Shown here: positions 20,198-39,037 of the stretch, one piece after another
How the letters are laid out: each line of letters starts with the position of its first letter
Numbering within the stretch: the first letter of the stretch is position 1
Made by a program: the position numbers and the translations under genes
DNA from: an uncultured Actinomycetes bacterium
GTDB lineage: Bacteria; Actinomycetota; UBA4738; HRBIN12
Reading direction: 5' to 3'
Length of the DNA: 64,000 nucleotides
Assembly (NCBI GenBank): GCA_963716935.1
Contig: CAVQUN010000005.1
Location: 384,864 to 448,863 of the forward strand
Notes under the pieces: generated by a model
What the model saw: the letters and a program-made list of their open reading frames with translations, nothing else
The model's database searches: none
Told to the model about the DNA's origin: nothing

Positions 20198-20200
20198 GGG

Positions 20201-21640: not shown

Positions 21641-21713
21641 GACAAGGCTCCTCGTTCGGCGACGGGCCAGATGATAGGCCCGTATGCTCCGCTCGTCGCA
21701 GGGAGGTGGCGTC

Positions 21714-22493
21714 ATGGGACGGCTGGACGGCAAGGTCGCGTTGATCACCGGAGGCGCGAGCGGCATGGGGATGGTCGCCTCGAAGCTGTTCGCGGCCGAG
21801 GGCGCGAAGGTGGTGCTCACCGACCTCGCCGACGACGCGGGCCTCGCGATCGCGAAGGAGATCGAGGCCGACGGCGGCGAGGCCGCCTACGTCCACGCGG
21901 ACGTCTCGTCCGAGTCCGACGCGAAGGACATGGTGGCGGCGGCCGTCGAGCGCTTCGGCGGCCTGCACGTCTTGTACAACAACGCCGGCGTCATGCTCGC
22001 CGAGGACGGCTCCGTCGACTCGACGGACGCCTCCATCTGGGACACGACCCTCGCGATCAACGTGAAGGGCGTCGCCTTCGGGTGCAAGTACGGCGTCCCG
22101 GCGATGATCGACTCGGGGGGCGGGTCCATCATCAACGTCGCTTCCTTCGTCGCGTGGATGGGCGCCGCGACGTCGCAGACCGCCTACACGGCCTCGAAGG
22201 GGGCCGTGCTCGCGATGACCCGCGAGATCGCCGTCGAGTATGCGCGCAGGGGCGTCCGGTGCAACGCCCTGTGCCCGGGCCCGATCGACACGCCGCTGCT
22301 CGCCGAGCTGCTCTCGGATCCCGCGCGGCGCCAGCGGCGGTTCGTCCACATCCCGATGGGCCGGCTCGGCCGGGCGGACGAGCTCGCGAAGGCGGCGCTG
22401 TTCCTCGCCTCCGACGACTCCTCGTTCATGACCGGGGCCTCCCTGGTCGTGGACGGGGGGATCACCGCGGCATACGTCACGCCCGAGGACTGA
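21714..22493 (+). CDS. SDR-family oxidoreductase
   Basis: TGGASGMG Rossmann motif, NNAG, and the YTASK catalytic motif. RBS GGAGG upstream of ATG 21714. Confidence 0.88.
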   Translation: MGRLDGKVALITGGASGMGMVASKLFAAEGAKVVLTDLADDAGLAIAKEIEADGGEAAYVHADVSSESDAKDMVAAAVERFGGLHVLYNNAGVMLAEDGSVDSTDASIWDTTLAINVKGVAFGCKYGVPAMIDSGGGSIINVASFVAWMGAATSQTAYTASKGAVLAMTREIAVEYARRGVRCNALCPGPIDTPLLAELLSDPARRQRRFVHIPMGRLGRADELAKAALFLASDDSSFMTGASLVVDGGITAAYVTPED

Positions 22494-22542
22494 CCGGCAA
22501 AGAACGGACTGAACCCTCCGGCCTCGGGGGACGATAACCCCG

Positions 22543-22827
22543 GTGATGGAGGCGCTCCTCGCCGTCGGCGGCCCGGGTCCGCAGATCACCCCCAGCTGGG
22601 ACTTCTGGCTCCCCGGCTACATGCTGCTGTCGTTCCTGCTGCTGGTCGTCTTGGTCCGAAGCCGGGTCACGCCCTGGACCGCGGCCGTCTGCCTGGCCAC
22701 CGGGACCCTCTGGTCGTGGACCGACAACGCGATGGGCGTCGTCCCCGCCGCCGCGCTCGCCGTGTTCGTGGCCGTGCTCGCCGGGGCGGTGCGCCGGCGG
22801 ATGCCACCACTGCGCCGCGCGCGCTGA
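22543..22827 (+). CDS. Small hypothetical membrane protein
   Basis: Two predicted TM helices. Weak RBS. No recognisable family. Confidence 0.3.
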   Translation: MMEALLAVGGPGPQITPSWDFWLPGYMLLSFLLLVVLVRSRVTPWTAAVCLATGTLWSWTDNAMGVVPAAALAVFVAVLAGAVRRRMPPLRRAR

Positions 22828-22830
22828 CGC

Positions 22831-24354
22831 TCAGGCAGAGGCGAACGCCGGCTTCAGCGCGAAATACACCTCCCGGTACCGCCGGTACGCCTCGTCGTAG
22901 ACCTCGCGCCGCTCCGGATCGGGCTCGTGCCCGTCGGGCCGAAACGCCACGAAGGCCTCGACCGCGTCCACCACGCTCGCATGCACGCCGGCGCCGACCG
23001 CCGCGAGGATCGCCGCGCCGGTGGCGGTGGTCTCCACGCTCTGCGGAACGCGGACGGGAAGCCCCGTGACGTCGGCCTTGATCTGACGCCACAACGGCCC
23101 CTTCGCGCCGCCGCCGACGATCGTCAGGCGGCGAACGTCCAGACCCGCGGCCTTCATCGCCTCGAGGATGTCGCGGAGGGCGAACGCGCTCCCCTCGAGG
23201 ATCGCTCGCGTCATGTGCGCGCGGCTGTGGGCGAGCGTCAGCCCGAAGAAGACGCCGCGCGCCGCCCCGTTCCACTCCGGCGCCATCGCGCCCTGCATGC
23301 ACGGCAGGAACACGAGCCCCTCGGCCCCGGGCGGGACCCGCTCGGCCTCGCGCGAGAGGAGGTCGTAGGCGTCGCCGAGGCCCTCGGCCTCGGCGCCCCG
23401 CTCGATCGGCGCGAACTGATCGCGCCACCACCGCAGGTTGCCGCCCGAGACGAACCCCGGGTTCTCGAGCAGCCAGGCGTCGGGGTCGGCGTGGGGATGG
23501 CACTCGACGAGCATCGTCGGGTCCTCGCGCGGCTCGGCCGAGGCGGCGCACACGGGCTCGGCGGTCCCGACGACGTCGCACACCTCCCCGGGGGCGAACA
23601 CGCCGGCGCCGAGCGTGGCAGCCATCTCGTCGCCGCAGCCGACGGCAACCACGGTCGCGCGATCGAGCCCCGTTGACTCCGCGAACGCCGCCGTGATCAA
23701 CGCGATCGGGTCGGTCGCGGCCACCACCGCCGGGAGCAGGTGCTCGGGGAGATCGACCGCCGCGAGCGCCTCGGCCGACCACTTCCGCGACCGAGGATCG
23801 AGGAGCGCGAGCGAGGAGGCGTTCGAGTAGTCCACCGCGATCGTCCCGGAGACCTCGCGCAGCACGTACGTGCCGGGCGACATCAGAAACGTCGCACGCG
23901 ACCACACCTCGGGCTCCTCGTCGCGGACCCAGAGCGCCTTGAACACCGCGTGCGAGGAGTCGAGGTTGGCGCCCACGTGGTGATAGAAGTCCTCTGGAGC
24001 GATGCGCTCGGCCACGGCGGCCGCCTGAGCCTCCGCGCGGCGGTCCATCCAGATCATGGCGGGGCGCAGCGGGCGCGCGTCGGCCCCGCAGACCACCATC
24101 CCGTCGAGCTGCGATCCGAAGGACAGCCCCTTCACGGCCGAGGGCCCCTCCGGGACGTGCTCGAGGAGCTCGCGCACGCCCGCCGCGACGGCCGCCGGCC
24201 AGAGGTCGGGGTCCTGCTCGGCGGCGCCGGGGAACGGGAACGAGAGGTCATAGGCCTGGTACGAGGACGCCACCAGCGTCCCGTCGGCCGAGTACAGCGC
24301 GCAGTTCGTGCCCTGCGACCCGACGTCGCAGCCGATGACGTACGGCCCGCTCAC
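22831..24354 (-). CDS. FGGY-family carbohydrate kinase (xylulokinase-like)
   Basis: FGGY N- and C-terminal domains (YVIGCDVGSQG...GGGAKGPLWRQI). GTG 24354 forms a GTGA overlap with the upstream ADH stop. The 5' 317 codons of the track ORF are artefact. Confidence 0.85.
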   Translation of the reverse strand: MSGPYVIGCDVGSQGTNCALYSADGTLVASSYQAYDLSFPFPGAAEQDPDLWPAAVAAGVRELLEHVPEGPSAVKGLSFGSQLDGMVVCGADARPLRPAMIWMDRRAEAQAAAVAERIAPEDFYHHVGANLDSSHAVFKALWVRDEEPEVWSRATFLMSPGTYVLREVSGTIAVDYSNASSLALLDPRSRKWSAEALAAVDLPEHLLPAVVAATDPIALITAAFAESTGLDRATVVAVGCGDEMAATLGAGVFAPGEVCDVVGTAEPVCAASAEPREDPTMLVECHPHADPDAWLLENPGFVSGGNLRWWRDQFAPIERGAEAEGLGDAYDLLSREAERVPPGAEGLVFLPCMQGAMAPEWNGAARGVFFGLTLAHSRAHMTRAILEGSAFALRDILEAMKAAGLDVRRLTIVGGGAKGPLWRQIKADVTGLPVRVPQSVETTATGAAILAAVGAGVHASVVDAVEAFVAFRPDGHEPDPERREVYDEAYRRYREVYFALKPAFASA

Positions 24355-25403
24355 GGCAGGATCACCATCTTCAGCCCGGCGCCCGAGCGGATCGTCTCGA
24401 ACGCGTCCCCGATGCGTTCGAGCGAGAACCGGTGCGTGACGACGCGCGCGAGGTCCTCCTGGCGGCGGTCGAGGTAATCCATCGTGATCCGGTACTGCCG
24501 ATGGGTGGCCCCGTACGCGCCGAGGATCGCGAGCTCCTTGTAGTGGAGCTGGTTCATGTCGAGCGGGCTCACCGGGTCGTGCTTGGGCAGTCCGGCGAAG
24601 TAGACGACCCGGGCGCGCTTGGCGGCCATCTCGAGCGCCGCCTGCTGGGCGGCCTTGGCCGGAGCGGCCACGCTCACGCGGTCGACCCCGTGACCCCCCG
24701 TCCGGGAGAGCACCTCGGAGACGCCGTTGTCGGCGCCCGAGACCCAGGCGTCGTCGACGAAGTCGCCGACGATGCCCAGCGCGACGTCGAGCCGGTCCTT
24801 CTTGACGTCGGACAGGAAGATCCGGCTCGCGCCGCGGTCGCGGCACATGACGGCCTGCCAGCACCCGATGGGCCCCGTTCCGAGGATCATGACCGTGTCG
24901 CCGAGGCGCACGTCGAGCATCTCGACGCCGTTCAGCGCGCACGCGAACGGATCGGCCACCGTCGCGAGGTCCGAGGGCAGGTCGCCCGGCAGCGGGATGA
25001 GGTTCTTCGTCGCGATCGGCGGGACGGCCGCCCACTCGGCGTAGGCGCCCGGAAACGGGTCGTACCCGTAGAGGAGATGGTGCTCGCAGAGGTTCTGGAA
25101 GCCGTCGAGACACCAGCGGCACTCGCCGCACGTCAGGATCGAGCCGAGGAACACCCGGTCGCCCTTGCGAACGCCGGGAGGCAGCGCCGCCTCGTGCCCG
25201 ACCTCCTCGAGCACGCCCACCGGCTCGTGGCCCAGCACCCACGGCGCGGGAGCGCGGGGGTCGCCGTTGAAGAACGTCCGGGCGTCGGTCCCGCAGATCC
25301 CGCACGCCTCCACGCGAAGGATCGCGCCGGCGGGGTCGAGCTTCGGTTCCTCGGTGTCGCGGATCTCCACGGCATCGACGTCGGTCATGAACGCCGCGCG
25401 CAT
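24351..25403 (-). CDS. Zinc-dependent MDR alcohol/polyol dehydrogenase (sorbitol/threonine dehydrogenase-like)
   Basis: GHEPVG catalytic Zn motif, structural Zn cysteines CGECRWC, and Rossmann GTGPIG. Confidence 0.88.
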   Translation of the reverse strand: MRAAFMTDVDAVEIRDTEEPKLDPAGAILRVEACGICGTDARTFFNGDPRAPAPWVLGHEPVGVLEEVGHEAALPPGVRKGDRVFLGSILTCGECRWCLDGFQNLCEHHLLYGYDPFPGAYAEWAAVPPIATKNLIPLPGDLPSDLATVADPFACALNGVEMLDVRLGDTVMILGTGPIGCWQAVMCRDRGASRIFLSDVKKDRLDVALGIVGDFVDDAWVSGADNGVSEVLSRTGGHGVDRVSVAAPAKAAQQAALEMAAKRARVVYFAGLPKHDPVSPLDMNQLHYKELAILGAYGATHRQYRITMDYLDRRQEDLARVVTHRFSLERIGDAFETIRSGAGLKMVILP

Positions 25404-25410
25404 GCCTCGA

Positions 25411-26220
25411 TCACCGCCCCGCCAGCTCGTCCTGGAGCGCCTCGTGGGCCTTGTCGGCCGCCCAGCGCTCGCGGATCACGCGGGCGAGCGCCCGCGTGAT
25501 GGCCTCGGGCGACGCGTGCATGAAGATGTTCCGGCCGACCGAGCACCCGATCGCCCCCGCCTCGACCGCGACCTGCATGCGCCACAGCAGCTCGGCGTCC
25601 TCCAGGCGCGACCCGCCGGCCAGCACCACCGGGATCCCGTTCGCCGCCTCGACGAGCCGCCCGAACGACTCCGGGTCCCCGGGCCAGTTCGTCTTCACGA
25701 TGTCGGCGCCGAGCTCGGCGCACAGGCGGACGTTGCGCCGCAGGTACTCGAAGCCGTACTGCTGCTTCAGCTCCTCGACCGTCGCGTAGGTGGTGGGGAA
25801 CTCGGCCTCGGCGATGAACGGCATGCCGAGCGCCCCGCACTCGCGCCCGACGGCCGCGAGGATGTCGATCATCCCGGGCTCGGTCTCGCCGCCGAGCGCG
25901 GTGAAGAGCACGACGGCGTCGGCGCCGAGCACGAGCGCCTCCTCCACCTCGGCGATCTGCACGATCTGCGGCCGGTCGCCGTCCGGGTTCCCCGACGCCG
26001 AGAGCAGGAGCGCGAGCGAGGTCGTCGGCGAGAAGGCCGGCTCCGCGATCCGGATCATGCCCTTGCTCATCATGATGACGTTCGCGCCGCCGGCCACGGT
26101 CTCCGCGGCGCGCATCGCGATGTCCGCGAGCGGCTCGAGGAACGTCGGCGAGGTCATGCCGTGGTCGAGGGCGCAGATGATCGACACGCCCGCGGGATCG
26201 ATCACGCGCTTCAGTCGCAT
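25411..26220 (-). CDS. DhnA-type class I aldolase (FbaB/LsrF/ADH-synthase family)
   Basis: 269-aa C-terminal segment of the track ORF with the DeoC/DhnA TIM-barrel pattern (IVKTNWPGD, VVLAGGS). ATG at 26220. Confidence 0.8.
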   Translation of the reverse strand: MRLKRVIDPAGVSIICALDHGMTSPTFLEPLADIAMRAAETVAGGANVIMMSKGMIRIAEPAFSPTTSLALLLSASGNPDGDRPQIVQIAEVEEALVLGADAVVLFTALGGETEPGMIDILAAVGRECGALGMPFIAEAEFPTTYATVEELKQQYGFEYLRRNVRLCAELGADIVKTNWPGDPESFGRLVEAANGIPVVLAGGSRLEDAELLWRMQVAVEAGAIGCSVGRNIFMHASPEAITRALARVIRERWAADKAHEALQDELAGR

Positions 26221-26240
26221 CGCCTTGCCCACCTGTGCCG

Positions 26241-26985
26241 TCACGTGTGCCTCCTCCCCGGACCCCGCCGGAACACCGAGAACTCGAACGCGTCCGCCAG
26301 GTGGTGCTCGTGCGAGGAGACGAGCGGAGCGCCCGACTCGTCGAAGTCCACCTGACGCAGATACAGGAGCAACGTCCCGCGGGCGACGCGGAGACGGGAT
26401 GCGACGTGTCCGTCCGCCCGCGTCGGCCGGAACGTCGCGAGCCCGTGATGGATCACCTGGCCGAGATCGCGCTCGAGCACCTCGTACACGGAGCTCGTCT
26501 CGAGCTTGGTGAGCAGCGCCGGGTCGTCGCCCGTGACGCGCATGGCCAGGATGTCGCGCGACAGGACGACGGGTCGCCCGTCGGCCGTGCGAACCCGGTC
26601 GACGACGACCACGTCCTCGCCCGGCTCGAGGTCCAGACGCTCGGCCTCCTCGGCGGAGGCGGCCTCGACGCGTAGGACCCCCTGCTCGGTTCCCGGTTCC
26701 ATGCCCGACGCGCGGATCGCGTCGGTCACGCCGAAGTTCGCGTCGAGGTTGTTCGCCATGCGCGGGCGGTCCGACACGAAGGTCCCCGCCCCGCGCGTCC
26801 GCCGGACGAGCCCCTCCTCCTCCAGGGACCGAAGCGCCTCGCGAAGCGTCGCCCTCGAGACGCCGAGCTCGGCCGCGAGCTCGGGCTCGGGGGGAGCTGG
26901 CTCCCCGCCGGCTCGTCGAGGATCCGCGTGGCGATGTGGCGCCGCACCGAGAGCGTCTTGGAACCCGACCGTCGCACCCGCACCC
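26241..26985 (-). pseudogene. GntR/HutC-family regulator (wHTH + UTRA) interrupted by a frameshift at a C6 homopolymer
   Basis: The HTH half (VRRSGSKTLSVRRHIATRILDEPAGSQLPP | EPELAAELGVSRATLREALRSLEEEGLVRRTRGAGTF) switches frame at the G6/C6 run 26888-26893. The UTRA effector domain continues in the other frame to the stop at 26241. One extra C would restore a single ORF. Confidence 0.6.
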
Positions 26986-27004
26986 CTCCCGAGCCATCAG
27001 TATT

Positions 27005-27017
27005 TGTCTGACAAAGC
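27005..27017. promoter_or_regulatory. Palindrome TTTGTCTGACAAA, candidate GntR/HutC operator
   Basis: Perfect 6-1-6 inverted repeat with the GT-N-AC core typical of HutC-subfamily operators. Lies in the divergent region between the GntR gene and the permease gene. Confidence 0.35.
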
Positions 27018-27081
27018 CCGGTCGTCAACACGGATCCCGAGCGTGGCAGGCACGGCGCGAGCCTCAGTGGGGACTTCTCCT

Positions 27082-27116
27082 GTTTGACATGCCCCGGCCG
27101 GCTATGGCTCGATACG
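27082..27116 (+). promoter_or_regulatory. Conserved promoter-like motif GTTTGACA-N21-GATACG (copy 1) upstream of the permease gene
   Basis: Contains a TTGACA -35-like hexamer. Identical architecture, with the downstream CGAACGA extension, recurs at 28830-28864. Confidence 0.4.
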
Positions 27117-27163
27117 GCCCGAACGACCGACGGACGGTCCGTGCAGCCAGGGGAGGTGGCCAC

Positions 27164-28765
27164 GTGTCGGAACGCAAGGTCGGGTCCGTGACCTACCAGG
27201 AGGTGGGCCAGGACTACTTCGACAAGCGCGGCCTTCGGCGCCACGCAGGTGTCTGGTCGCTGTGGGCCCTCGGCGTCGGGGCGGTCATCTCCGGCGAGTA
27301 CTACGGCTGGAACTTCGGCCTGGGAACCGGAGGATTCGGCGGCCTGCTGATCGCCGGTGCGCTGATGGCGATCATGTACTACGGCCTCGTCTACTCGATC
27401 GCCGAGATGTCCCCCGCGCTCCCGCACACGGGCGGTGCGTACTCGTTCGCGAGATCGGCCATGGGGCCGTGGGGCGGGTTCCTCACCGGCCTCGCGGAGA
27501 ACATGGAGTACGTGATCACGCCGGCGGTCGTCGTCGGCGCGATCGGGCTGCTCATGCAGGAGATCGTCGCGGGCCTGTTCAACGTCACCGGCGACCCGTG
27601 GTGGAACAGCCTCCCGATGTGGTGGGCGGTCTTCTACATCATCTTCGTCGGGATCAACATCCTCGGGATCGAGGCCACGATGCGATTCACGGTGGTCATC
27701 ACGGTCCTGTCCATCGCGGTCCTCGTGTTCTTCTTCCTTGCGGCGATCTTCTCGGGGAAGCTCGACTTCTCGCTGTGGACGAACATCCCCAAGGGCGGCG
27801 GCGAACCGATCCCCGGCGGAGGCGGACCGATGCTCCCGTTCGGGCTGAGCGGGATCTTCAAGTCCCTTCCCTTCGCGATCTGGTTCTTCCTCGCGATCGA
27901 GGAGGTGCCGCTCGCGGCGGAGGAGTCGATGGACCCGCGGCGCGACGTGCCCAAGGGATCCGTGTGGGCGATGCACACGCTGCTGATCGCGGCCATCCTC
28001 ACGCTGGTCTTCAACACGGCCCTGCCGGGAGGAGCGTTCCTCTACGGCCAGTCGGGGTTCCCGCTGCTGGATGGGCTGTTCGCGATCTTCGGCAAGGACA
28101 GCGCCACCGAGTTGCTCGGGCTCCTGTTCCTCATCGGCCTCGTGGCGAGCTTCTTCACGATCATCTACGCGTACGGCCGGAACACGTACTCACTGTCGCG
28201 CGCCGGCTACTTCCCGAAGTTCCTGTCGAAGACACACGGTCAGCGCAAGACACCCCATGTCGCCCTGATCGCCGGGGCGCTCGTCGGGTACGCGGTCTCG
28301 CTGCTCGTGTACATCCTGCAGCGTGAGGAGCTCGGCACGCAGATCGTCGCCGCGCTGCTGAACATGGCGGTATTCGCTGCGGTCATCTCGTACATCTTCC
28401 AGATGACGTCGTTCGTCCTGCTCCGCAGGAAGATGCCGAACATCGCGCGGCCCTACCGCAGCAAGTGGGGCGTTCCGGGTGCGGTCATCGCGGGACTGCT
28501 CGCGGCCGTGTCCCTCGTGGCGATCTTCCTGAACGAGGCCTACCGCCCCGGCGTGTATGGCGTGGCGATCTACTACGTCCTCGGGGTCCTGTACTTCGCG
28601 ATCGCCGGGAGGAACCGGCTCGTCCTCTCACCGGAAGAGGAGTTCGCGCTCACGCAGGGCGAGAAGGGCGTGCCGCAGGAGAGCTACGTGACGAGCGCGG
28701 CGGAGCAGGAGGCGATCCTGCGCGGCGAGAGTTCGAGCACCGGAACCCAGGCCCCGTCTGGGTAG
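27164..28765 (+). CDS. APC-superfamily amino acid/ethanolamine permease (EutP/Eat-like)
   Basis: 12-TM APC fold. HTGGAYSF-like motif (LPHTGGAYSFARSAMGPWGGF) typical of ethanolamine permeases. GTG 27164 behind RBS GGGAGG. Confidence 0.8.
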   Translation: MSERKVGSVTYQEVGQDYFDKRGLRRHAGVWSLWALGVGAVISGEYYGWNFGLGTGGFGGLLIAGALMAIMYYGLVYSIAEMSPALPHTGGAYSFARSAMGPWGGFLTGLAENMEYVITPAVVVGAIGLLMQEIVAGLFNVTGDPWWNSLPMWWAVFYIIFVGINILGIEATMRFTVVITVLSIAVLVFFFLAAIFSGKLDFSLWTNIPKGGGEPIPGGGGPMLPFGLSGIFKSLPFAIWFFLAIEEVPLAAEESMDPRRDVPKGSVWAMHTLLIAAILTLVFNTALPGGAFLYGQSGFPLLDGLFAIFGKDSATELLGLLFLIGLVASFFTIIYAYGRNTYSLSRAGYFPKFLSKTHGQRKTPHVALIAGALVGYAVSLLVYILQREELGTQIVAALLNMAVFAAVISYIFQMTSFVLLRRKMPNIARPYRSKWGVPGAVIAGLLAAVSLVAIFLNEAYRPGVYGVAIYYVLGVLYFAIAGRNRLVLSPEEEFALTQGEKGVPQESYVTSAAEQEAILRGESSSTGTQAPSG

Positions 28766-28791
28766 CGGGTCGCTCGATCCAACGCGCGGAC

Positions 28792-28824
28792 GGCGGGCCC
28801 CTCGGGGCCCGCCGTCTTCGTCTC
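28792..28824 (+). terminator. Putative intrinsic terminator after the permease gene
   Basis: GGCGGGCCC-CTCG-GGGCCCGCC hairpin followed by GTCTTCGTCTCC. The T-tract is weak for a high-GC genome. Confidence 0.4.
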
Positions 28825-28829
28825 CGCAC

Positions 28830-28864
28830 GTTTGACAGCCCGGACCGTCGGTGCACGTGATACG
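28830..28864 (+). promoter_or_regulatory. Conserved promoter-like motif GTTTGACA-N21-GATACG (copy 2) upstream of GS-like gene 1
   Basis: Same hexamers and same 21-nt spacing as copy 1. Followed by CGAACGAAC. Confidence 0.4.
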
Positions 28865-28890
28865 CGAACGAACTCACGAGGGGGAGCGAG

Positions 28891-30279
28891 ATGACGCACC
28901 CGCAGGGCATGCTCGACGCGAAGCACCTCGAGGAGCTCGCCGGCAAGGGCGAGATCGACACGGTTCTGTGCATGTTCACCGACCTGCAGGGCCGCTTCAT
29001 GGGCAAGCGCGTCGTCCCGCACTTCTTCCTCGAGGAGATCCTGGGCGAGGAGGGGCTGCACGCGTGCCTGTACCTGCTCGCCATCGACATGGAGATGGAG
29101 CCGCTGCCCGGATACCGCTACGCGAGCTGGGAGACCGGGTACGGCGACTTCCGCATGGTCCCGGACATGAGCACGCTTCGCTGGTGCCCCTGGCTCGAGA
29201 AGACCGTGATGGTGCTCTGCGACATCTTCGAGGAGGAGGAGAAGGACCAGGAGGTGGAGGTCGCGCCCCGGACGATCCTCAAGCACCAGATCGCGCGCGC
29301 GGCCGCGGCCGGCTACACGATCAAGACCGGCTCGGAGCTCGAGTTCTACCTGTTCCAGGATTCGTACCGCGAGGCCGCCGAGCGCGGCTATCGGGACCTG
29401 CGCCCCAGCTCCCCGTACATCATGGACTACCACATGCTCCAGACCACGCGGGACGAGTGGATCGTCCGGCAGATCCGCAACGCGATGCTGGGTGCGGGCA
29501 TCCCCGTCGAGTTCAGCAAGGGCGAGTTCGGCAAGGGCCAGCAGGAGATCAACATCACCTACTCGGACGCGCTCTCGAACGCCGACCACCACGCCCTGTA
29601 CAAGCACGGGGTCAAGGAGATCGCCGAGCTGAACGGCGTGGCGATCACCTTCATGGCGAAGTGGACGATGGCCGAGGCCGGCTCCAGCTGCCACCTGCAC
29701 TCGAGCGTGTGGAACGCCGAGGGGACCAAGAGCCTGATGTGGTCCGACGAGGGCGAGCACCACATGAGCGACACCTACCGCTGGTACCTCGGCGGCCTCA
29801 TGGCGTGCGCGCGCGAGATGGCCTGGATGTACGCGCCGTTCGTGAACTCCTACAAGCGCTACCAGCTGGGCTCGTGGGCGCCGACGGCGATCGTGTGGAG
29901 CCGGGACAACCGCACCTGCGGATTCCGCACCGTGGGCGAGCACACGGGCGCGCGGGTCGAGTGCCGGATCCCCGGCGCCGACGCGAACCCCTACCTGGCG
30001 TTCGCGGCGACGATCGCGGCCGGCCTGTGGGGGATCGAGAACAAGGTCGAGCCGCCCGAGATGTTCGTCGGCAACGCCTACGAGGCTAAGGACGTGGCCC
30101 GCGTCCCCTACTCGCTCCACGAGGCGATCGAGGCGTTCAAGGACTCGAAGGTGGCCCGGGAGGCGTTCGGGGACTTCGTCTTCGAGCACCTGCTGAACAC
30201 GGCGGTCCAGGAGCAGGTCATCTTCGACAACACGACCGTGACCGACTGGGAGCTCGCCCGGTACTTCGAGCGCGGCTGA
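28891..30279 (+). CDS. Glutamine synthetase-family protein 1 (gamma-glutamyl-amine synthetase, GlnA4/PuuA-like)
   Basis: GS catalytic-domain motifs (GSELEFYLF, KGEFGKGQQEIN, SWAPT...WSRDNRT, ADANPYLAFAA). Lacks the GlnA type I adenylylation loop. Confidence 0.88.
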   Translation: MTHPQGMLDAKHLEELAGKGEIDTVLCMFTDLQGRFMGKRVVPHFFLEEILGEEGLHACLYLLAIDMEMEPLPGYRYASWETGYGDFRMVPDMSTLRWCPWLEKTVMVLCDIFEEEEKDQEVEVAPRTILKHQIARAAAAGYTIKTGSELEFYLFQDSYREAAERGYRDLRPSSPYIMDYHMLQTTRDEWIVRQIRNAMLGAGIPVEFSKGEFGKGQQEINITYSDALSNADHHALYKHGVKEIAELNGVAITFMAKWTMAEAGSSCHLHSSVWNAEGTKSLMWSDEGEHHMSDTYRWYLGGLMACAREMAWMYAPFVNSYKRYQLGSWAPTAIVWSRDNRTCGFRTVGEHTGARVECRIPGADANPYLAFAATIAAGLWGIENKVEPPEMFVGNAYEAKDVARVPYSLHEAIEAFKDSKVAREAFGDFVFEHLLNTAVQEQVIFDNTTVTDWELARYFERG

Positions 30280-30304
30280 CCATAGGCCTCGAGAGACTCG
30301 TGAG

Positions 30305-31036
30305 ATGCGGCCCGTCCTGCTGATCGGGCACGATCAGAACGAGACCTTCGGGTTGGCCCCGGCCGGCCTCGGGGCTCGAGGGCTGGAGGTCTTTGAGCAC
30401 CGTGCCCCGTCGGGCGGCACGCTCCCTTCGATCGACGCGGTCTCCGGAGTGATCGTCTTCGGGGGATCGATGAACGTGGACATGGTCGACCGTTACCCCT
30501 TCCTCCTGGAGGAGCGAGGCTTCGTGCGCCGGGCCGTCGACGCGGGCGTTCCCCTTCTGGGGATCTGCCTCGGATCGCAGATGCTCGCGAGGGCGATGGG
30601 TCATGAGGTGTATGCGGCCGACGTGCGGGAGTTGGCGTTCAACGTCCTCCACGTGACGCCCGAGGCGGCCGCCGACCCGCTCATGTCCGTGTTCCGCGAC
30701 GGCGACATGGTCTTCCACTGGCACGAGGACACCTTCGAGCTCCCGGAGGGCGCGACGATCCTCGGCACCGGGGACGAAGTCCATCTCCAGGCGTTTCGGA
30801 TCGGCGACCACGCCTGGGGCATGCAGTTCCATTTCGAGATCGACCGGGCCGAGCTGGAGCTCTGGCTCCGGGCGGCTGGCGAGGACGTCGTGCAAGCGTG
30901 GGGGAAGACCACTGCCCAGGTCCTGGATGAGGCCGATCGTTTCTTGGCGACCCAGGAGGCGCGCGCCACCCGGCTCTTCGGCAGGTTCGCAGACGTGGTC
31001 CTGGCGGCGGGGAGAAATCGATCGGCCACCGGCTAG
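30305..31036 (+). CDS. Class I glutamine amidotransferase-like protein 1 (gamma-glutamyl-amide hydrolase candidate)
   Basis: GATase1 fold with nucleophile-elbow GICLGSQ and His/Glu in WHEDTFELP. Confidence 0.8.
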   Translation: MRPVLLIGHDQNETFGLAPAGLGARGLEVFEHRAPSGGTLPSIDAVSGVIVFGGSMNVDMVDRYPFLLEERGFVRRAVDAGVPLLGICLGSQMLARAMGHEVYAADVRELAFNVLHVTPEAAADPLMSVFRDGDMVFHWHEDTFELPEGATILGTGDEVHLQAFRIGDHAWGMQFHFEIDRAELELWLRAAGEDVVQAWGKTTAQVLDEADRFLATQEARATRLFGRFADVVLAAGRNRSATG

Positions 31037-31134
31037 ACAGCGACCGCACTCCGGTGCAAGGATTCGCGACGACGTGACCTGGTGGGGGTTCCCGCCTCGG
31101 CTCGCGGGGTCCCCCCGACAAGGGAGGGGGTCGC

Positions 31135-32721
31135 ATGGCTGCGCAGGCCGATGAGAAGGTGATGGTCGCCGAGAAGATCGCGCCGCTCCTGGTCGCGCGG
31201 TCCCTCACGGCCTTCGACCTGATCGTCATCTTCGTCGGGATCGTCCTGTTCATCACGAACTCCGCGGGCTTGCAGTTCGCTGGCCCGTCCGTGTTCGTCT
31301 TCTGGATCATCGCGTTCCTGACGTTCCTCCTCACCGGCGCCTTCATCACGGCGCATCTCGGGAGGATGTTCCCGGAGGAGGGGTCGCTGTACGTCTGGAC
31401 CCACAAGGTCCTCGGCCCGTTCTGGGGGTTCTTCGCCGGGTTCGTGGCCTGGTGGCCGGGACCGCTGGTGATGGTCGCGGCCGGCATCCTCGTCGTTGCC
31501 TTCGCCCAGCAGGTCGCCGCCTTCAGCGACAGCACGATCCTGACGGAGGCCTGGCAGCAGGGCCTGGTCATCCTGGCGGTCCTCTGGTTCGGAGCGATCC
31601 TGTCGCTGCTCCGGATGCGCCTCACCCAGAACTACGTGAACCTCCAGTTCTTCTTCTACGGCGCGGCGATCTTCGTGATGGGGCTCGCCGGCGTGGTCTG
31701 GCTGCTGAAGGGCAACCCGGCGGCGAACTCGTTCGCCACCGATCTGTGGAACCCGTGGCAGGGCGACAAGATCGTGCTCGGGCTGCCCGGGTACCTGACC
31801 TTCTACTCCTTCGCCGTCCTCGCCCTGCTCGGGATCGAGGTCCCGCTGAACATGGGCGTCGAGGTCGTAGGCGGCGAGGCCGCGATCAAGAAGTACCTGT
31901 TCTGGGGTTGCATCATCGTGATGGCCGCCTATCTCTGGACGACGTGGGGCAACATGGTGACCGTCTCCGTCGCCGAGGTGAACGGCACGACCGGAGGCGC
32001 GCAGGGGGTGGGCATCGCGATGGGTGACGCGCTCGGGATCGCCGTGGCGCTCGTCCTGATGTGGTTCTTCATCACGGCCTCGATGGTCTACAACTACTCG
32101 TTCGCCCGGCTGCTCTTCGTTTCCGGACTGGAGAAGCGGCTGCCCCCGATGATTGGTCGCGTCAACAAGAACAAGGTGCCGGCGAACGCCGTCCTGCTGC
32201 AGACGATCCTGGCGTCGATCATCACAGCCATCATCTTCTTCGGCATCGGGCAGGCCGGTGGCGGCGACCCGAACAAGCCATACTTTGCGCTCCTCGCAGG
32301 GCTCACCATCATCTGGTGCATCTCGACGGCTCTGCTGTTCCTCGACATCTTCTTCGCAAAGCGGGCCGATCCGGAGCGATTCGAGAAGGCGCGGAGGACG
32401 AACGAGGGGTTCCTCTACGCCTGCGGCGCGGTCGGCTTCCTGGCGAACCTCGCCGCGGTGTTCTTCATCTTCACCGGCACGTGGTATCCGCCGGGATTCC
32501 CGACCCTGGGAGAATGGAACACGTGGCTGGCAGTCATCGCGGTCGTTTCGATCGTCGCCGGGATCACGATCTGGTTCATCTCCGAGGGGATGCGCGGGGG
32601 CAAGTCGGATGTCCAGCTGATCGACGAGATCGCGGCTGAGGTCGGCGCCACGGTCGTAAACCTGAACGAGCCGACGACCGCTGGCACCTCGCCGGGCGGG
32701 GTTGGCGGTTCGCCCGCTTAG
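31135..32721 (+). CDS. APC-family amino acid/polyamine permease
   Basis: 12-13 predicted TM helices with APC-family composition. RBS GGGAGGGGG upstream of the ATG. Confidence 0.82.
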   Translation: MAAQADEKVMVAEKIAPLLVARSLTAFDLIVIFVGIVLFITNSAGLQFAGPSVFVFWIIAFLTFLLTGAFITAHLGRMFPEEGSLYVWTHKVLGPFWGFFAGFVAWWPGPLVMVAAGILVVAFAQQVAAFSDSTILTEAWQQGLVILAVLWFGAILSLLRMRLTQNYVNLQFFFYGAAIFVMGLAGVVWLLKGNPAANSFATDLWNPWQGDKIVLGLPGYLTFYSFAVLALLGIEVPLNMGVEVVGGEAAIKKYLFWGCIIVMAAYLWTTWGNMVTVSVAEVNGTTGGAQGVGIAMGDALGIAVALVLMWFFITASMVYNYSFARLLFVSGLEKRLPPMIGRVNKNKVPANAVLLQTILASIITAIIFFGIGQAGGGDPNKPYFALLAGLTIIWCISTALLFLDIFFAKRADPERFEKARRTNEGFLYACGAVGFLANLAAVFFIFTGTWYPPGFPTLGEWNTWLAVIAVVSIVAGITIWFISEGMRGGKSDVQLIDEIAAEVGATVVNLNEPTTAGTSPGGVGGSPA

Positions 32722-32783
32722 CAGACGATCCGCAGCAGCTGAGGGCCGCTCACGACTCGTGAGCGGCCCTCAACGCTCACCGG

Positions 32784-33959
32784 TCACTCGCCGCCGATGC
32801 CGTGCAACCGGCGGCAGCTTCCCGCCAGCACCAGCCTGCCCAGCCGCTTCGCGTCCGAGGCGGAGAGGTAGTCGCGCTTCACGAACCGGGTGAGGACGCG
32901 CTCGAGCGCCGATCGGGCGAGCAGGGCCGAGGCCCAGAACGCCTCGGGCTCGCCCGCCTCGTCCGAGCCGTAGAGGAGCTTCGCTGCGGGGACGGTTCCC
33001 ACGAGCATCTCGAGCGCCCACTCGACCTGTCCCCATCCCCACGGGATGAGCTCGGAGAGCTCGAGGTAGACGTTGGGGAGCACGGACGCGATGTACGCGG
33101 CCTCGCGAACCCACGGGTAGCCGGAGTGGACGAGGACGACCGGCTGATCCTGGACGTCGACGAGGAGCGGGAACAGCGACTGCGGCGTGGCGTGCGCGAG
33201 GTCGATGTCCGGGTCGCCACCGCCGCAGTGGAAGTGGAAGGGCCGATCGGTCGCCTTGGCGACCTCGAGCGTGCGCCTGATGAGGAAGTCGCGGACCGGC
33301 TTGGCGTGCTCGCGGCTCTCGCGCCAGTCGTCGGCGCGCCACTTGCCGAACGCCGCCTCCGCATCCGCCGGCGTCGGATCGCCGACGTCCAGACCGGTGC
33401 GGTACGCGACGATCGACTTGAACGCGACGCAGTTCGCGTCGCCGGCGGCCTCGCGGGCGTCGGCCTCGACGCCAGAGACCAGGTCGTCGAACGAGCCGTC
33501 GCGGCGTCGAAGGATCCACGGCTCCAGCCGCGCCACGCGGTGGACCGTCGCGCCGATCGTCCGCGCGAACTCGGCGGCCGGGATCGGGGGCTGCGGGAAG
33601 CCCTCGTCGGAGAGGACCGCGACGACGCCGGCGGCCTCGAGCAGCCCCTTCGTATAGGCGACGGCGTCGGCCTGCAGCGCCGCCTGGCGGGCAGCGGTCA
33701 CCGCCTCCCGGGTCGGTTCGCACCCGAGATGCCCGGCCAGCCACCGTCGCAGCGCGATCGCGAACACCGTCGAGTCCGTCATCGAGTCGGCGAGCGGCCA
33801 GAGATCCTCGTGCACGCGCGACGACGAGTGGAACGCCTCGCCCAGGAACATCGCGCGGGTGTCGAACCCCTCGGAAGGGCGTCCGACGAGGTCCTCGAGC
33901 CGGTACGGATGGGTGTGGGCGTCGACGACCTCCGCGCCCGAGAGCTTCACCTTCTTCAT
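32784..33959 (-). CDS. Amidohydrolase-2 (PF04909-like) metal-dependent TIM-barrel hydrolase
   Basis: HTHPY metal-binding start, HFHCGGG and HSGYPW motifs. Located inside a 988-aa spurious opposite-frame ORF. Confidence 0.78.
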   Translation of the reverse strand: MKKVKLSGAEVVDAHTHPYRLEDLVGRPSEGFDTRAMFLGEAFHSSSRVHEDLWPLADSMTDSTVFAIALRRWLAGHLGCEPTREAVTAARQAALQADAVAYTKGLLEAAGVVAVLSDEGFPQPPIPAAEFARTIGATVHRVARLEPWILRRRDGSFDDLVSGVEADAREAAGDANCVAFKSIVAYRTGLDVGDPTPADAEAAFGKWRADDWRESREHAKPVRDFLIRRTLEVAKATDRPFHFHCGGGDPDIDLAHATPQSLFPLLVDVQDQPVVLVHSGYPWVREAAYIASVLPNVYLELSELIPWGWGQVEWALEMLVGTVPAAKLLYGSDEAGEPEAFWASALLARSALERVLTRFVKRDYLSASDAKRLGRLVLAGSCRRLHGIGGE

Positions 33960-33974
33960 CGGCGTTCCATCCCC

Positions 33975-35430
33975 TCAGTAGCGCCAGCGGACCGCGGAGA
34001 CAACCTCCTCCGGCGACCTCCCCTCGAAGGCATCGCGCTCGCCGCGCCGGGTCGCAAGGAACGCGTCGAACAGCACGTCGCCCATGGCCCGGCGAAGCAG
34101 GTCCGAGCGCTCGAGCTCGCGGATGGCCGCGCCCAGCGACGACGGGAGCTGCCGGACGCCGAGGGCGCGCCGGCGTGCGGCCGGCAGGGATGCGGGATCG
34201 ACGAGGACCGGCTCGGGCAGGGAAAGGCGACGCTCGATGCCGTCGATCCCGGCCGCCACGATGGCCCCGAGCGCAAGGTACGGGTTGGCCGCCGGGTCGA
34301 TGGCCTTCACCTCGAGGTTCGCGGCCTCGGGGCGGCTGCCCACCATGCCGGTGACGAAGCGCAGCGCCGCCTCCCGATTCTCGCGGCCCCAGCACGCCCA
34401 GGGGCCGCTCCACCGGTGCGGCTGGAGCCGCTGGTAGCTCGCCACCGAGGGGGCCGTGATGGCCGTGAGGGCCGGCATCGCGGCCAGCACGCCGGCCGCG
34501 AACGACTCGGCCTCGCGCGTCATGCCCTCGGGACCGCGCCCGCCGTTGAACAGGTTGCGTCCGGCCCGGTTCCACAGGCTGAGGTGCAGGTGGGCGCCGT
34601 TGCCGACCAGGCCGGCGAAGACCACGGGCGCGAACGACTCCGCGAGGCCGTGGTTCCGCGCCACGGCCCGGACCGTGTGCCGGACGACGAGGTTCGTGTC
34701 CGCGGCCGCGATCCCGACGCCGTGCGGGACCGAGAGCTCGAGCTGTCCCGTCGAGTACTCCGGGTGGAACTGCATGACGCCGGTCCCCTGCTCCTCCAGC
34801 GCGCGGATCAGCGACGTCGCGAACGGCTCGACGTCGGCGAGCGCGATCGCGCTGTACGCGGGCCCGCGGTGCGCCGGCGGCGGGTCGGCCTCGGGCCCGA
34901 GCCCCACCGGCGGGCGATGGCCGAGGAAGAACTCCATCTCGTACGCCCCGCGCAGTTCCATCCCGTGCCGCGCGAGCCGCTCGAGCATGCTCCGCGCGAA
35001 CGTCCGGACGCAGGCCGGGTAGGGCTGCCCCTCCTGGTCGAGCTGATCGACCGGGGCGAGGGCCCAGCCCGGGCTCGCGGCGAGCGCGACGGTGCCGGCG
35101 GGATCCGGCAGGAGCCGCGTATCGCCCGTCGGCCCCCCGATGTGCGGCGACGAGGTGATCTGGTCGTCGACGAGGAAGACCGTGAACACCGGCGACAACC
35201 CGACGCCGAACCTCGCCGCCTCCTCGAATCGTCGGAGCGGGACGGTCTTCACGAGCGTGACGCCCGCGTTGTCGACGAGCGCGAGCGCAACGGCCTCGAC
35301 GCCCGAGGCCGCGAGCCGTCGCGAGACCTTGGCGGCCGTGTCCGAGCCGCCGCGAGCCGACCCGCCCCGCGTCCCGGCCGCGGGGCTCAGAACAGCTCCA
35401 GGTACTCGGTTCGCTCCCAATCGGTGACCC
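33975..35430 (-). CDS. Glutamine synthetase-family protein 2
   Basis: Beta-grasp plus catalytic domains (LVDNAGVTLVKTVP...EMEFFL...LHLSLWN...ANPYLALGA). The only in-frame start upstream of the conserved N-terminus is TTG 35430, which overlaps the 3' end of GS-like gene 3 by 44 nt. The rest of the 809-aa track ORF is artefact. Confidence 0.7.
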
Positions 35431-36715
35431 AGTCGTTCGACCTCGAGAGCTCGTAGCGCCGCATGGTGGTGTAGGCCGTGAGGAACTCCTCGCCGAAGAA
35501 GTCCTTGGTCGCCGGCTCCTGCTCGAGCGCGTCGAGCGACTCGTGGAGGTCGGTCGGGAGCTTCTCGAGCGCGTCGTCCTCCTCGGCCGGCACCCCGCGC
35601 TTCGACGGCTCCGGCGCCGAGAGCCCCTCCTCGATGCCGCGCAGGCCCGCCTGCACCAGCGCCGCACCGACGAGGTAGGGGTTCGACATCGCCGAGGGGG
35701 CGCGGTACTCGATGTGCTTGTTCGAAACCGGCCCACCCTTCACCCGGATCAGCGCCGAGCGATCCTCCAGCCCCCACGAGATGTTCGTCGGGCTGAACGT
35801 GTGGCGACGGCGGCGGCGAAGGCAGTTCACGGTCGGCGCGATCACCGCGTCGATCGACCGGGCGTACTTCAGGATGCCGCCGATGAAGGCGCGGCCCGTC
35901 GCGTTCAGTCCCTGCGGGTCCTCCTCGTCGCCGAACGCGTTCTCGCCCGACTCGGTGCGCACGAGCGACACGTGCGTGTGGCAACCACTGCCCGCCGACG
36001 TCGGCCACGGCTTGCTCATGAAGGTCGCGAGGAGCCCGTCCTGCTTCGCGATCTCCTTCACGCCGTTCTTGAAGGTGAACGCGTTGTCCGGGCCCGCCAG
36101 GCCTCGACCCGGCGCGAAGTTGATCTCCCACTGCGACCCGGCGTATTCGCAGTTCGACGTGATGATGTCGACGCCGACCTCCGGCATGGCCTCGAGGATC
36201 CGCCGGATCGTCGGCACGTAGTCGTTGCGGACCGTGTTGAAGATCTGGTAGCCGGAGAACAACGGCTCGTGCGTCTCGGGATCCACGAGGTAGAACTCGA
36301 ACTCGGAGCCGATCACCGGCTCGAAGCCCATCGAGCGCGCCTTGTCGAGCGCCTCGCGGAAGACATGCCGCGGCGTGGCGCGGAGCGGGCTGCCGTCGTA
36401 CCACTGCGTGTCGCAGATCAGCCTCGCCGTCCGATCAGCCCACGGGAGCACCGCGGCCGTGTCGGGGTCGGGGAACAGCAGCTGGTCGCCGTATCCGCGC
36501 TCCTCGTGATACAGCGTGCCCGGGACAACGTCGGAGCGCGTGTCGAGCACGCTCGTGCCGCCGTACATGTTGAGGCCGCGCTCCGAATACCCCGACGCGT
36601 GACCGATCGGGATCGTCTTGGAGCGCGAGATGCCGTGGAGGTCCGGGAGCTCGAACCGGACGAACGCGATCCCCTGGTTCCGCCAGTCCTCGAGCACCTT
36701 CGTGACGTCGCTCAT
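35387..36715 (-). CDS. Glutamine synthetase-family protein 3
   Basis: ATG 36715 behind RBS GAGGAGGGGA. GS motifs (GSEFEFYLV, GCHTHVSLV, MSNPYLVGAA). The N-terminal 52 aa of the track ORF are excluded. Confidence 0.85.
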   Translation of the reverse strand: MSDVTKVLEDWRNQGIAFVRFELPDLHGISRSKTIPIGHASGYSERGLNMYGGTSVLDTRSDVVPGTLYHEERGYGDQLLFPDPDTAAVLPWADRTARLICDTQWYDGSPLRATPRHVFREALDKARSMGFEPVIGSEFEFYLVDPETHEPLFSGYQIFNTVRNDYVPTIRRILEAMPEVGVDIITSNCEYAGSQWEINFAPGRGLAGPDNAFTFKNGVKEIAKQDGLLATFMSKPWPTSAGSGCHTHVSLVRTESGENAFGDEEDPQGLNATGRAFIGGILKYARSIDAVIAPTVNCLRRRRRHTFSPTNISWGLEDRSALIRVKGGPVSNKHIEYRAPSAMSNPYLVGAALVQAGLRGIEEGLSAPEPSKRGVPAEEDDALEKLPTDLHESLDALEQEPATKDFFGEEFLTAYTTMRRYELSRSNDWVTDWERTEYLELF

Positions 36716-36926
36716 CTGCGCTCCCCTCCTCGGGCTCGCCCCGATCGACCTGCGGTGCTGGGTATAGCGTGAGGGGCCGAGACCCGCAACGCGAGGCGAC
36801 GCGGCCGGCGACGGCCGCTCCCGAGCGACCGGGCGGGACTCCGGGCCACGGGGCGGGTGGGGTACGCTCACGCCGCCGGCGCGACGTTCGGCGGACGACC
36901 GACCGGAGCACGCGAAGGAGGTCCGG

Positions 36927-38318: not shown

Positions 38319-39037
38319 GCCCAACTCCCGCCGGCGCCGCCCCGTTGCGCGCGCTCGTCCTGCAGCACGAGGACCCCACGCCCCCCGGGCTCGTCACCGA
38401 ATGGCTCGCGTCCCACGAGGCCCTCGTCGAGACCTTCCGCATCGACCTGGAGGATCGCGAGCTCGATCCGACCGACTACGACCTCATCGTGTCGCTCGGT
38501 TCCGAGTTCGCCGCGTTCGACGACACGAAGCCGTTCGTGGGGCGCGAGGCCCGGCTCCTGCGTCGAGCCGTCGACGCCGACGTCCCCGTCCTCGGCCTCT
38601 GCTTCGGCGGCCAGATGCTCGCGCGGGTGCTCGGCGCCGACGTGTTCCGCTCCGAGGAGTCCGAGATCGGGTGGCTCCCCGTCCGCAGCACCGATCCCGA
38701 GCTCGTCCCCGAGGGCCCGTGGTTCCAGTGGCACTTCGACTCGTTCACCGCGCCGCCCGGGGCGAGCGTGATCGCCGAGTCCGACGTGGGCCCGCAGGCC
38801 TTCGTCGCGGGTCGCAGCCTCGGGCTGCAGTTCCACCCCGAGGTGACCCCGCAGATCATGGACGACTGGGTGCGCACGTACCGGCATGAGCTCGACGCCG
38901 ACGGGGTCGATCCCGACGCGCTGCTGGAGGAGACGCATCGGCGCGCCGACGAGAGCCGCCGGACGTCGTGGCAGCTCCTCGAGCGGTTCCACGACCGGAT
39001 CGCCGGCCTCGGCGCGCGGGAAGCGACGACGGCGTAG
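38314..39037 (+). CDS. Class I glutamine amidotransferase-like protein 2
   Basis: GTG 38314 in a GTGA overlap with the aminotransferase stop. GATase1 motifs GLCFGGQ and HFDSF...FHPE. The upstream 223 aa of the track ORF are artefact. Confidence 0.8.

Follow-up and report, generated by a model that had tools for sequence, protein, structure and literature searches.

Ethanolamine is released wherever phosphatidylethanolamine membranes decay. Its use by glutamylation needs no microcompartment and forms no acetaldehyde. To date this route has been demonstrated in Streptomyces, and for a few proteobacteria it has been inferred. The described model is the Streptomyces coelicolor cluster SCO1610-SCO1615 (glnA4, epuRI; Krysenko et al. 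2019, PMC6529630), where ethanolamine is proposed to be converted to gamma-glutamylethanolamide, then to the aldehyde and to gamma-glutamylglycine, and finally to glycine and glutamate, with an alcohol dehydrogenase and an aldehyde dehydrogenase (ALDH) placed between ligase and hydrolase. The ligase GlnA4 acts specifically on ethanolamine (Km 0.47 mM) and is needed for growth on it, while the role of the hydrolase SCO1615 is only predicted (PMC6529630). Here we analyse a 64-kb stretch of DNA from an uncultured Actinomycetes bacterium (contig CAVQUN010000005.1), the whole of which is called the window. Its region at about 20.2-31.0 kb is, in our judgement, probably a gamma-glutamylation-type ethanolamine utilisation cluster, and most likely a new example of the pathway already described rather than a new kind of system.

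The S. coelicolor cluster and the window locus are alike in that ligase, short-chain dehydrogenase (SDR) and ALDH are encoded together, and both have a divergent regulator of the GntR family and a hydrolase of the class-I amidotransferase (GATase) fold. The differences lie in the individual parts. An Eat-type permease is encoded here and no permease there. The EpuRI-type regulator of Streptomyces is FadR-type (GntR+FCD) whereas the regulator of the window and its relatives is HutC-type (GntR+UTRA), an analogous divergent role taken by another branch of the family. The hydrolase is a C26 peptidase in Streptomyces and a GuaA-like GATase in the window; glnA4, ALDH and SDR form one operon there, while ALDH and SDR form a separate divergent pair here; and an operon of kinase, dehydrogenase and aldolase, which we call the companion operon, is missing in the S. 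coelicolor cluster and present in the window.

A comparison was also made with the proteobacterial clusters of Phaeobacter sp. MED193 (MED193_10026-10056, induced on phosphatidylethanolamine; PMC10132767), the S. meliloti pSymB locus and Chromohalobacter salexigens. They share with the window a ligase of the same clade (46-51% identity), an ALDH, an alcohol dehydrogenase, a transporter encoded directly 5' of the ligase and an amidohydrolase. However, their transporter is a TRAP system or a member of another APC subfamily (TIGR00907-like) instead of Eat, their hydrolase is an N-formylglutamate amidohydrolase instead of a GuaA-like GATase, and their regulator is RpiR-type instead of HutC-type; the S. 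meliloti alcohol dehydrogenase is iron-containing, while that of the window is an SDR. Sets of a glutamine synthetase (GS)-like gene, an SDR gene, in some cases an ALDH gene, and a transporter gene also exist in T. roseum (annotated eat), A. silvanus and S. meliloti. The operon on the T. roseum megaplasmid (NC_011961.1, TRD_RS11145-11135) encodes a GS-family protein, an SDR and Eat, as the window does, and holds the closest relatives of the window ligase, SDR and permease among cultured organisms in the plasmid collection searched. Its order is GS-SDR-eat compared with eat-GS in the window, and it has no adjacent ALDH, GATase, GntR or kinase/aldolase genes.

Two systems for other amines have a similar layout. 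The E. coli Puu genes (puuP-puuA / puuD-puuR-puuC) resemble the locus in encoding a permease, a GS-like ligase, an ALDH, a hydrolase of the class-I GATase fold and a repressor, but the substrate is putrescine, PuuA falls outside the GlnA4 clade, PuuD is a C26 peptidase and the amine oxidase PuuB has no counterpart here. The Ipu pathway (IpuC, IpuF; Pseudomonas sp. KIE171 / Arthrobacter aurescens TC1; PMC6776027), likened by description and not by sequence, also combines a GS-like ligase with an amidotransferase-type hydrolase; it differs in its substrate, isopropylamine, and in oxidation by a P450 monooxygenase. When compared with the known clusters, the window locus is thus distinguished by the Eat transporter, the GuaA-like GATase, the HutC regulator and the co-regulated companion operon.

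Since the window has about 70% G+C, its genes were selected by third-position GC and frame analysis, together with Pfam matches. This gave a permease gene (27164-28765), a GS-like gene (GS1, 28891-30279) and a GATase gene (30305-31036), all on the plus strand and at the positions reported in the preliminary description of this DNA. That description had taken the three as the module. The genes stand, but they are not the complete route, as the two oxidation enzymes are encoded 5-9 kb upstream at 20201-22493: the ALDH on the minus strand (20201-21640; Pfam Aldedh, 556 bits) and the SDR on the plus strand (21714-22493; Pfam adh_short_C2). With these two enzymes, which lie outside the interval first described, the locus has, as judged by homology, the full enzyme set for the published route.

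All steps of the proposed route were assigned by homology and gene context. The permease would import ethanolamine, and GS1, with ATP, would join it to the gamma-carboxyl of glutamate to give gamma-glutamylethanolamide. The SDR, as the proposed gamma-glutamylethanolamide dehydrogenase (SCO1611-like), would oxidise the alcohol to the aldehyde, and the ALDH, as the proposed gamma-glutamyl-aminoacetaldehyde dehydrogenase (SCO1612-like), would oxidise the aldehyde to gamma-glutamylglycine. A hydrolase of the class-I amidotransferase fold, most likely the GATase, would then release glycine and glutamate. For control, the HutC-type regulator would bind the palindrome TTTGTCnGACAAA, and a hairpin between the permease gene and GS1 would probably tune their relative expression as a partial terminator or an RNA-stabilising element. 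The second set of promoter-like boxes that follows the hairpin in the window and its closest relatives would give GS1 and the GATase gene their own transcription start.

Two sets of loci were collected for comparison. For the relatives, a metagenome scan matched 405 stretches, and the best 80 (78-92% identical) were analysed along with two loci from metagenome-assembled genomes (MAGs); the best 120 GS1 relatives listed are 79-92% identical and come mostly from soil metagenomes and 'Actinomycetota bacterium' MAGs. Related loci are referred to by L numbers where they must be told apart. For the glnA4 references, one genome per species was scanned for a published S. coelicolor glnA4 reverse-transcription PCR primer, which gave 60 loci. 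Streptomyces with a GS1 homologue account for 36 of them, and the second primer is also found in 25 of these 36. The Streptomyces loci have the layout given in PMC6529630, with the C26 peptidase and the GntR+FCD regulator on the minus strand and glnA4, ALDH and SDR on the plus strand.

GS1 (462 aa; Pfam Gln-synt_C, 313 bits) is 47-49% identical over its full length to the Streptomyces GlnA4 orthologues, some of whose genes carry both glnA4 primers. Identity to PDB entry 11zs is 49% globally and, when aligned locally by HMMER, about 57% (479 bits), and to 5dm3, which from its PDB title we take to be the ligase of the C. salexigens ethanolamine locus, 46-47% globally and about 50% locally (411 bits). 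The T. roseum homologue is about 55.5-57% identical. On the other hand, identity drops to 25-31% against E. coli PuuA (27%) and the three other GS-like proteins of the window, GS2, GS3 and GS4; the paralogue GS3 resembles PauA7, with 4hpp as its best PDB match, whereas GS2 is GSI-like. A tree was built by neighbour-joining only, with PuuA, the window GS2-4 and R. opacus GS_a as outgroups and a reference set without GlnA2/GlnA3 (SCO2241, SCO6962) and PauA1-7. In 300 bootstraps, a bipartition that sets a GlnA4-type clade apart from the remaining GS-like proteins received 100% support; the members of this clade are the GS1 family, Streptomyces GlnA4, 5dm3, 11zs, one R. opacus protein and the proteins of T. 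roseum, A. silvanus and S. meliloti. The likeness to GlnA4 that had been noted for GS1 is borne out by these identities and the bootstrap support, which set it with Streptomyces GlnA4 and away from PuuA and PauA7-like enzymes, and a grouping of GS1 with polyamine-specific clades was not seen in this tree.

The alignment of the GlnA4-type clade has 120 invariant columns, and at 25 of these all outgroups deviate. GS1 keeps the metal and ATP ligands E149, E151, E212, E219, H268, H270 and E357, which align with the GlnA4 residues listed in PMC6529630. For the ammonium-site residues D50, Y179 and the E327 flap, the loop alignment is ambiguous, and PMC6529630 itself offers alternative equivalents. 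We consider GS1 to be a GlnA4-type enzyme and propose it as a gamma-glutamylethanolamide synthetase, for which specificity for ethanolamine is likely at 47% identity.

The permease (533 aa; Pfam AA_permease/AA_permease_2) begins with a GTG start preceded by GGGGAGGTGG. Among the family models, the Eat ethanolamine permease (TIGR00908, TC 2.A.3.5) comes first with 366.0 bits, about three times the 117 bits of the next family. The permeases of the relatives score 352-363 bits in the same model and T. roseum Eat, which was named by PGAP and lies in the GS-SDR-eat operon, scores 436 bits; the window permease is 50.7% identical to the latter over 503 residues. It therefore groups with Eat and not with generic amino-acid APC transporters. 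The HTGGAYSF-type motif pointed out in the preliminary description is present as PHTGGAYSF at residues 87-95. T. roseum Eat has PHAGGFYSF at the same place, so that the common form is PH(T/A)GG.YSF, and the other APC permeases have only the generic form P-x-x-GG-x-Y-x-W; the motif thus fits an ethanolamine permease but cannot identify one by itself. A homologue of the permease (39-84% identical) lies directly 5' of the GS1 homologue in 42 of the 53 related loci with enough upstream sequence. We propose that the permease is an Eat-type ethanolamine importer, as its family match suggests.

The same description had placed an ethanolamine permease next to glnA4 in S. coelicolor. This did not hold, since SCO1610-1615 contains no permease, although one is present in other Streptomyces species, and SPRI_5940 offers a precedent for testing ethanolamine transport by uptake assay or heterologous expression (PMC6529630). 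No relative of the window permease was found in the fetched Streptomyces loci. The ligase-adjacent permeases of S. meliloti and A. silvanus belong to another APC subfamily, and the Phaeobacter cluster has a TRAP system (PMC10132767). As the transporter varies in type in this way, it is evidently the component of such clusters that can be exchanged.

The oxidation pair gives similar values. The window SDR shares 48-49% identity with the Streptomyces SCO1611 orthologues encoded downstream of glnA4-ALDH and 57-59% with the ligase-adjacent SDRs of T. roseum (58%) and A. silvanus, and its start at 21714 is preceded by GGGAGGTGG. The window ALDH is 46-48% identical to the Streptomyces SCO1612 orthologues behind glnA4. 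The divergent pair, ALDH on the minus and SDR on the plus strand, recurs in the relatives: among the 30 loci that are 9 kb or longer, 16 have the SDR and 12 the ALDH, both counts being limited by the length of the flanks.

For the final hydrolysis there is an alternative, namely that the GATase has no part in the pathway and that a C26 peptidase encoded at 41707-43005, or an enzyme encoded elsewhere, acts instead. The GATase (243 aa; Pfam GATase) is of the GuaA-like PRK07053 type, NF005458 being its best family with 162 bits against a cut-off of 250. It has only a partial 24-bit match to Peptidase_C26, and no tblastn match at E<1e-5 was obtained with the Streptomyces SCO1615 orthologues. In contrast, the C26 domain of 41707-43005 is 35-39% identical to the SCO1615-type hydrolase and is its closest counterpart in the window. 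Also, the GATase gene directly follows the ligase gene in only 8 of the 58 relatives, and in one related locus, L002, GATase and C26 peptidase are encoded side by side. Nevertheless, 15 of the 30 related loci that span at least 9 kb have a GATase homologue somewhere, and the operator of the other cluster genes stands before it in L002 and L111. The catalytic triad is intact (Cys88 in GICLG, His175 and Glu177 in QFHFE), and the protein stands alone with no synthase partner adjacent. The window C26 gene adjoins another GS-like gene, GS4, and the role of SCO1615 is itself a prediction. IpuF of the isopropylamine pathway is an amidotransferase-type enzyme that hydrolyses a gamma-glutamyl amide (PMC6776027), a precedent that makes the role of the GATase as a hydrolase plausible. 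We therefore regard a GATase outside the pathway as doubtful, though the least so of the alternatives treated here, and take the GATase to be most likely the final gamma-glutamyl-amide (gamma-glutamylglycine) hydrolase, judged by its position and shared regulation only. The hydrolase that was thought to finish the route by analogy with S. coelicolor is thus plausible as such, but the relative of the Streptomyces enzyme is encoded at 41707-43005 and is not the GATase.

The regulator gene (26241-26982, minus strand) encodes a GntR-family protein of the HutC subfamily with a winged helix-turn-helix and a UTRA domain (99 bits). Upstream of it lies the perfect palindrome TTTGTCTGACAAA at 27003-27015, the sole site in the window and a proposed operator, inside the spacer and -10 element of a minus-strand promoter-like site TTGACG-18-AATACT before the regulator gene. 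With at most one mismatch, TTTGTCnGACAAA occurs at 49 sites in 711 kb of related loci and never inside a gene. Each of the 49 sites belongs to one of three positions: the regulator gene's 5' end, a point about 70-77 nt upstream of the permease gene, and, in L002 and L111, a point 57-65 nt upstream of the GATase gene. On the permease side, most relatives have the full near-palindrome TTTGACAGACAAA overlapping a -35-like TTGACA box, and the operator positions hold in L002 although the permease gene lies 8 kb from the regulator gene there; at the permease promoter of the window and its nearest relatives, no more than the operator's left half is kept. From these common positions we propose that TTTGTCnGACAAA is the predicted operator of the HutC-type regulator and that regulator, permease and GATase genes belong to one regulon, which would include the companion operon.

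The preliminary description had also reported a near-identical promoter motif in front of the permease gene and GS1. The arrangement TTTGACA-N21-GATACG does occur on the plus strand at 27083-27116, 5' of the permease gene, and at 28831-28864, between the hairpin and GS1, both without mismatches. These are exactly the two sites in the window, with no others even at two mismatches and 0.25 expected by chance. As compared by eye, the copies have in common the boxes, their spacing and a following CGAACGA, but their spacers differ, so that the likeness is confined to the former. The architecture TTTGACA...GTGGCTnnATAC is kept about 70-80 nt upstream of the permease gene in nearly all relatives. The second copy is found only in the closest relatives of the window, as TTTGACAG...GATAGC/GATACG (L064, L065, L072, L073, L076, L077, L079, L081, L117, L125 and L127).

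The boxes were rejected as a standard sigma-70 promoter in view of the 21-nt spacing and the missing final T of GATACG, and they were not called by the promoter scan. They were also examined as copies of the operator, of which the window retains just the left half at the permease gene. In the relatives, the second box (nATACn/GATAGC) is likewise without the usual final T, and the promoter-like site of the regulator has AATACT at 18-nt spacing. One possible reason for the 21-nt spacing and the T-less second box is that this lineage prefers an unusual -10 element; another is a different sigma factor. A small hydrophobic protein of about 95-127 aa, marked by a conserved ...AWGV.P... stretch, is encoded in most relatives just upstream of the permease promoter (for example L001 7955-8242 and L002 7830-8213). 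It is missing from the window and its closest relatives, where the gap between regulator and permease genes is only about 180 nt.

Between the permease gene and GS1, the hairpin at 28789-28816 (plus strand) consists of a 12-bp perfect GC-rich stem with the loop CTCG and can be extended to about 16 bp (about -35 kcal/mol). It had been described as rho-independent-like. The stem is there, but it has no T-run and for this reason was not called by the consensus terminator scan. A stem of at least 10 bp was found in all 52 distinct permease-ligase intergenic regions of the relatives (median 15 bp, -34 kcal/mol), compared with a median of 8 bp after shuffling, and in an alignment of 31 regions compensatory changes occur in 9 of 14 consensus pairs around the CGGCGG/CCGCCG core. 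The hairpin is not a chance feature. Its end lies 12-23 nt from the ligase start in most relatives and 57-73 nt from it in the subgroup of the window, where the extra space holds the second boxes. When 19000-33000 was searched against Rfam, neither the hairpin nor the leaders matched a riboswitch, ANTAR or any other known RNA. The hairpin is probably a terminator or attenuator without a U tract, or an RNA-stabilising element, that sets the ratio of permease to ligase.

The companion operon is made up of the regulator gene and three further genes on the minus strand: a DhnA-type class I aldolase (DeoC/LacD family; 25411-26220; Pfam DeoC, 115 bits), a Zn-dependent medium-chain alcohol/polyol dehydrogenase (24351-25403; Pfam ADH_N and ADH_zinc_N) and, as the last gene, a xylulokinase/LsrK-like FGGY sugar kinase (22831-24351; Pfam FGGY_N/C). 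The stop of the dehydrogenase gene overlaps the start of the kinase gene (GTGA). The kinase scores 345 bits with the XylB model, below the cut-off of 380, and its best PDB matches are LsrK and xylulokinase; among the 30 loci that are 9 kb or longer, 20 have it. No NCBIfam equivalog was found at cut-off for the dehydrogenase. For the aldolase, the ADH-synthase, class I FBA and LsrF models are all below cut-off, the best PDB match is MJ0400, and its relatives in the plasmid collection are only distant archaeal and rhizobial matches. The PDB matches of kinase and aldolase pointed to no pathway. Of the 30 related loci that reach 9 kb or more, 20-22 have the operon as a whole. Its place is between the SDR and permease genes, as in the window, or 3' of the ligase gene and divergent from the GATase gene. 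The operon is missing from all examined ethanolamine-type clusters of cultured organisms.

Several points weigh against reading the locus as an ethanolamine cluster. The companion operon has no place in the published route, so that the substrate or pathway may exceed ethanolamine. The permease score of 366.0 bits is below the curated TIGR00908 cut-off of 381.75. An identity of 47% to the characterised enzyme would not guarantee the same substrate specificity, and the tree has the limits of method and reference set given above. Membership in the GlnA4 clade does not always mean the same pathway either, because the context of the R. opacus 1CP member differs: on plasmid pR1CP1 (L147, 6697-11068), this protein, 46% identical to GS1, has as neighbours a second GS-like gene, three SDRs, a DUF1116 protein and an alpha/beta hydrolase, and no ethanolamine-type permease or ALDH. 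The GATase, besides following GS1 in few relatives, appears to be homologous neither to the C26 hydrolases of Streptomyces nor to the formylglutamate amidohydrolases of proteobacteria. Finally, the regulator gene is frameshifted in the window sequence.

This frameshift is a 1-nt deletion in a C-run at about 26895 (CCCGCCC to CCCCCC), which puts the helix-turn-helix part out of frame; it was recognised by alignment with the intact relative L067, whose protein has both GntR and UTRA domains. A second frameshift interrupts a class-III aminotransferase gene at about 40165-40175. With two indels in conserved genes, assembly errors are favoured over pseudogenes. The alternative, a real loss of the repressor, may apply to the regulator and, if true, would derepress the regulon.

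Some of the points against an ethanolamine cluster feed the view that the chemistry is as proposed but the substrate is another small amino alcohol or primary amine, such as 1-amino-2-propanol, 3-aminopropanol, serinol or an amino-polyol, or that ethanolamine is an intermediate from a larger compound, with the companion operon handling the remaining carbon skeleton. The operon has its operator in common with the permease-GS1 unit and the GATase gene, and it accompanies GS1 despite the rearrangements of gene order; to this are added its absence from the cultured clusters, the permease just under the Eat cut-off and the setting of the R. opacus protein. However, GS1, SDR and ALDH are about 47-59% identical to their counterparts in ethanolamine clusters and the permease 51% to T. 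roseum Eat, with the ethanolamine permease as its best model. The sequence names no candidate substrate, and the conserved neighbourhood could be synteny inherited within one lineage. We consider another substrate unlikely. It is likewise only a tentative suggestion that, in this abundant soil lineage of uncultured Actinomycetota, one HutC regulon (TTTGTCnGACAAA) tying the ethanolamine genes to the companion operon stands for an undescribed extended pathway, with the GuaA-like amidotransferase as a third, non-homologous hydrolase; as one possibility, such a pathway could degrade a larger amino-alcohol, amino-polyol or phospholipid head-group compound via ethanolamine and dihydroxyacetone phosphate.

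That GS1 is a polyamine ligase (PuuA/GlnA3/PauA-type), a methylamine ligase (GMAS-type) or a true glutamine synthetase, and the permease a generic amino-acid transporter, is highly improbable: the window has many other genes of polyamine type (GS2-4, class-III aminotransferases, a C26 peptidase) and GS1 has significant matches to the models of type III GS (methylamine type; 244 bits), GlnA (239 bits) and gamma-glutamylputrescine synthetase (196 bits), but these are far under the cut-offs of 470, 429 and 650 bits, the GMAS entries 7cql and 9qur reach 146-153 bits compared with 479 for 11zs, identity to PuuA and GS2-4 is well below the 46-57% to GlnA4-type proteins of the fully supported clade, and separate PuuA/PauA7-like and GSI-like proteins, GS3 and GS2, are already encoded in the window. 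What stands of the ethanolamine reading first put forward is the core of permease, GlnA4-type ligase and hydrolase, while the S. coelicolor permease, the type of hydrolase and the extent of the module had to be revised.

Outside the cluster, the GATase gene is followed by a second APC permease (31135-32721) and an Amidohydro_2 protein (32784-33959). Then come GS3 (33975-35327) and GS2 (35387-36871), two class-III aminotransferases (36927-38318 and about 39052-40414), GS4 (40411-41700) and the gene at 41707-43005, a single open reading frame with Peptidase_C26 at residues 6-230 and GrpB at 270-427. A 910-aa open reading frame at 38968-41700 was rejected as an aminotransferase-GS fusion, as it consists of the frameshifted aminotransferase and the separate in-frame GS4. 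We regard 31135-43005 as a dense gamma-glutamylation island, probably for the catabolism of polyamines or other amines. Behind this island lies an Opp/Dpp-type ABC transporter (SBP_bac_5, two permeases and an ATPase; 44260-49291), and in L002 an SBP_bac_5 gene also stands behind the GATase/C26 pair. On the other side, near the ALDH gene, a CDP-alcohol phosphatidyltransferase of phospholipid synthesis is encoded on the minus strand (17868-18560). This neighbourhood is kept in L064, L070, L078, L101, L116 and L117 (57-77% identity); the proximity may point to phospholipid head-group metabolism or be no more than synteny.

The 405 matched metagenome stretches suggest that the glutamylation route is common in uncultured soil Actinomycetota, and the window would provide a complete cluster with a dedicated importer. 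Genes annotated as 'glutamine synthetase family protein' that fall in the GlnA4-type clade could be renamed with some confidence, and the four GS-like paralogues within 13 kb (GS1-GS4) need not be redundant. In addition, the locus supplies regulatory parts that can be tested, namely the operator, the HutC repressor and the conserved hairpin, together with a candidate third type of final hydrolase.

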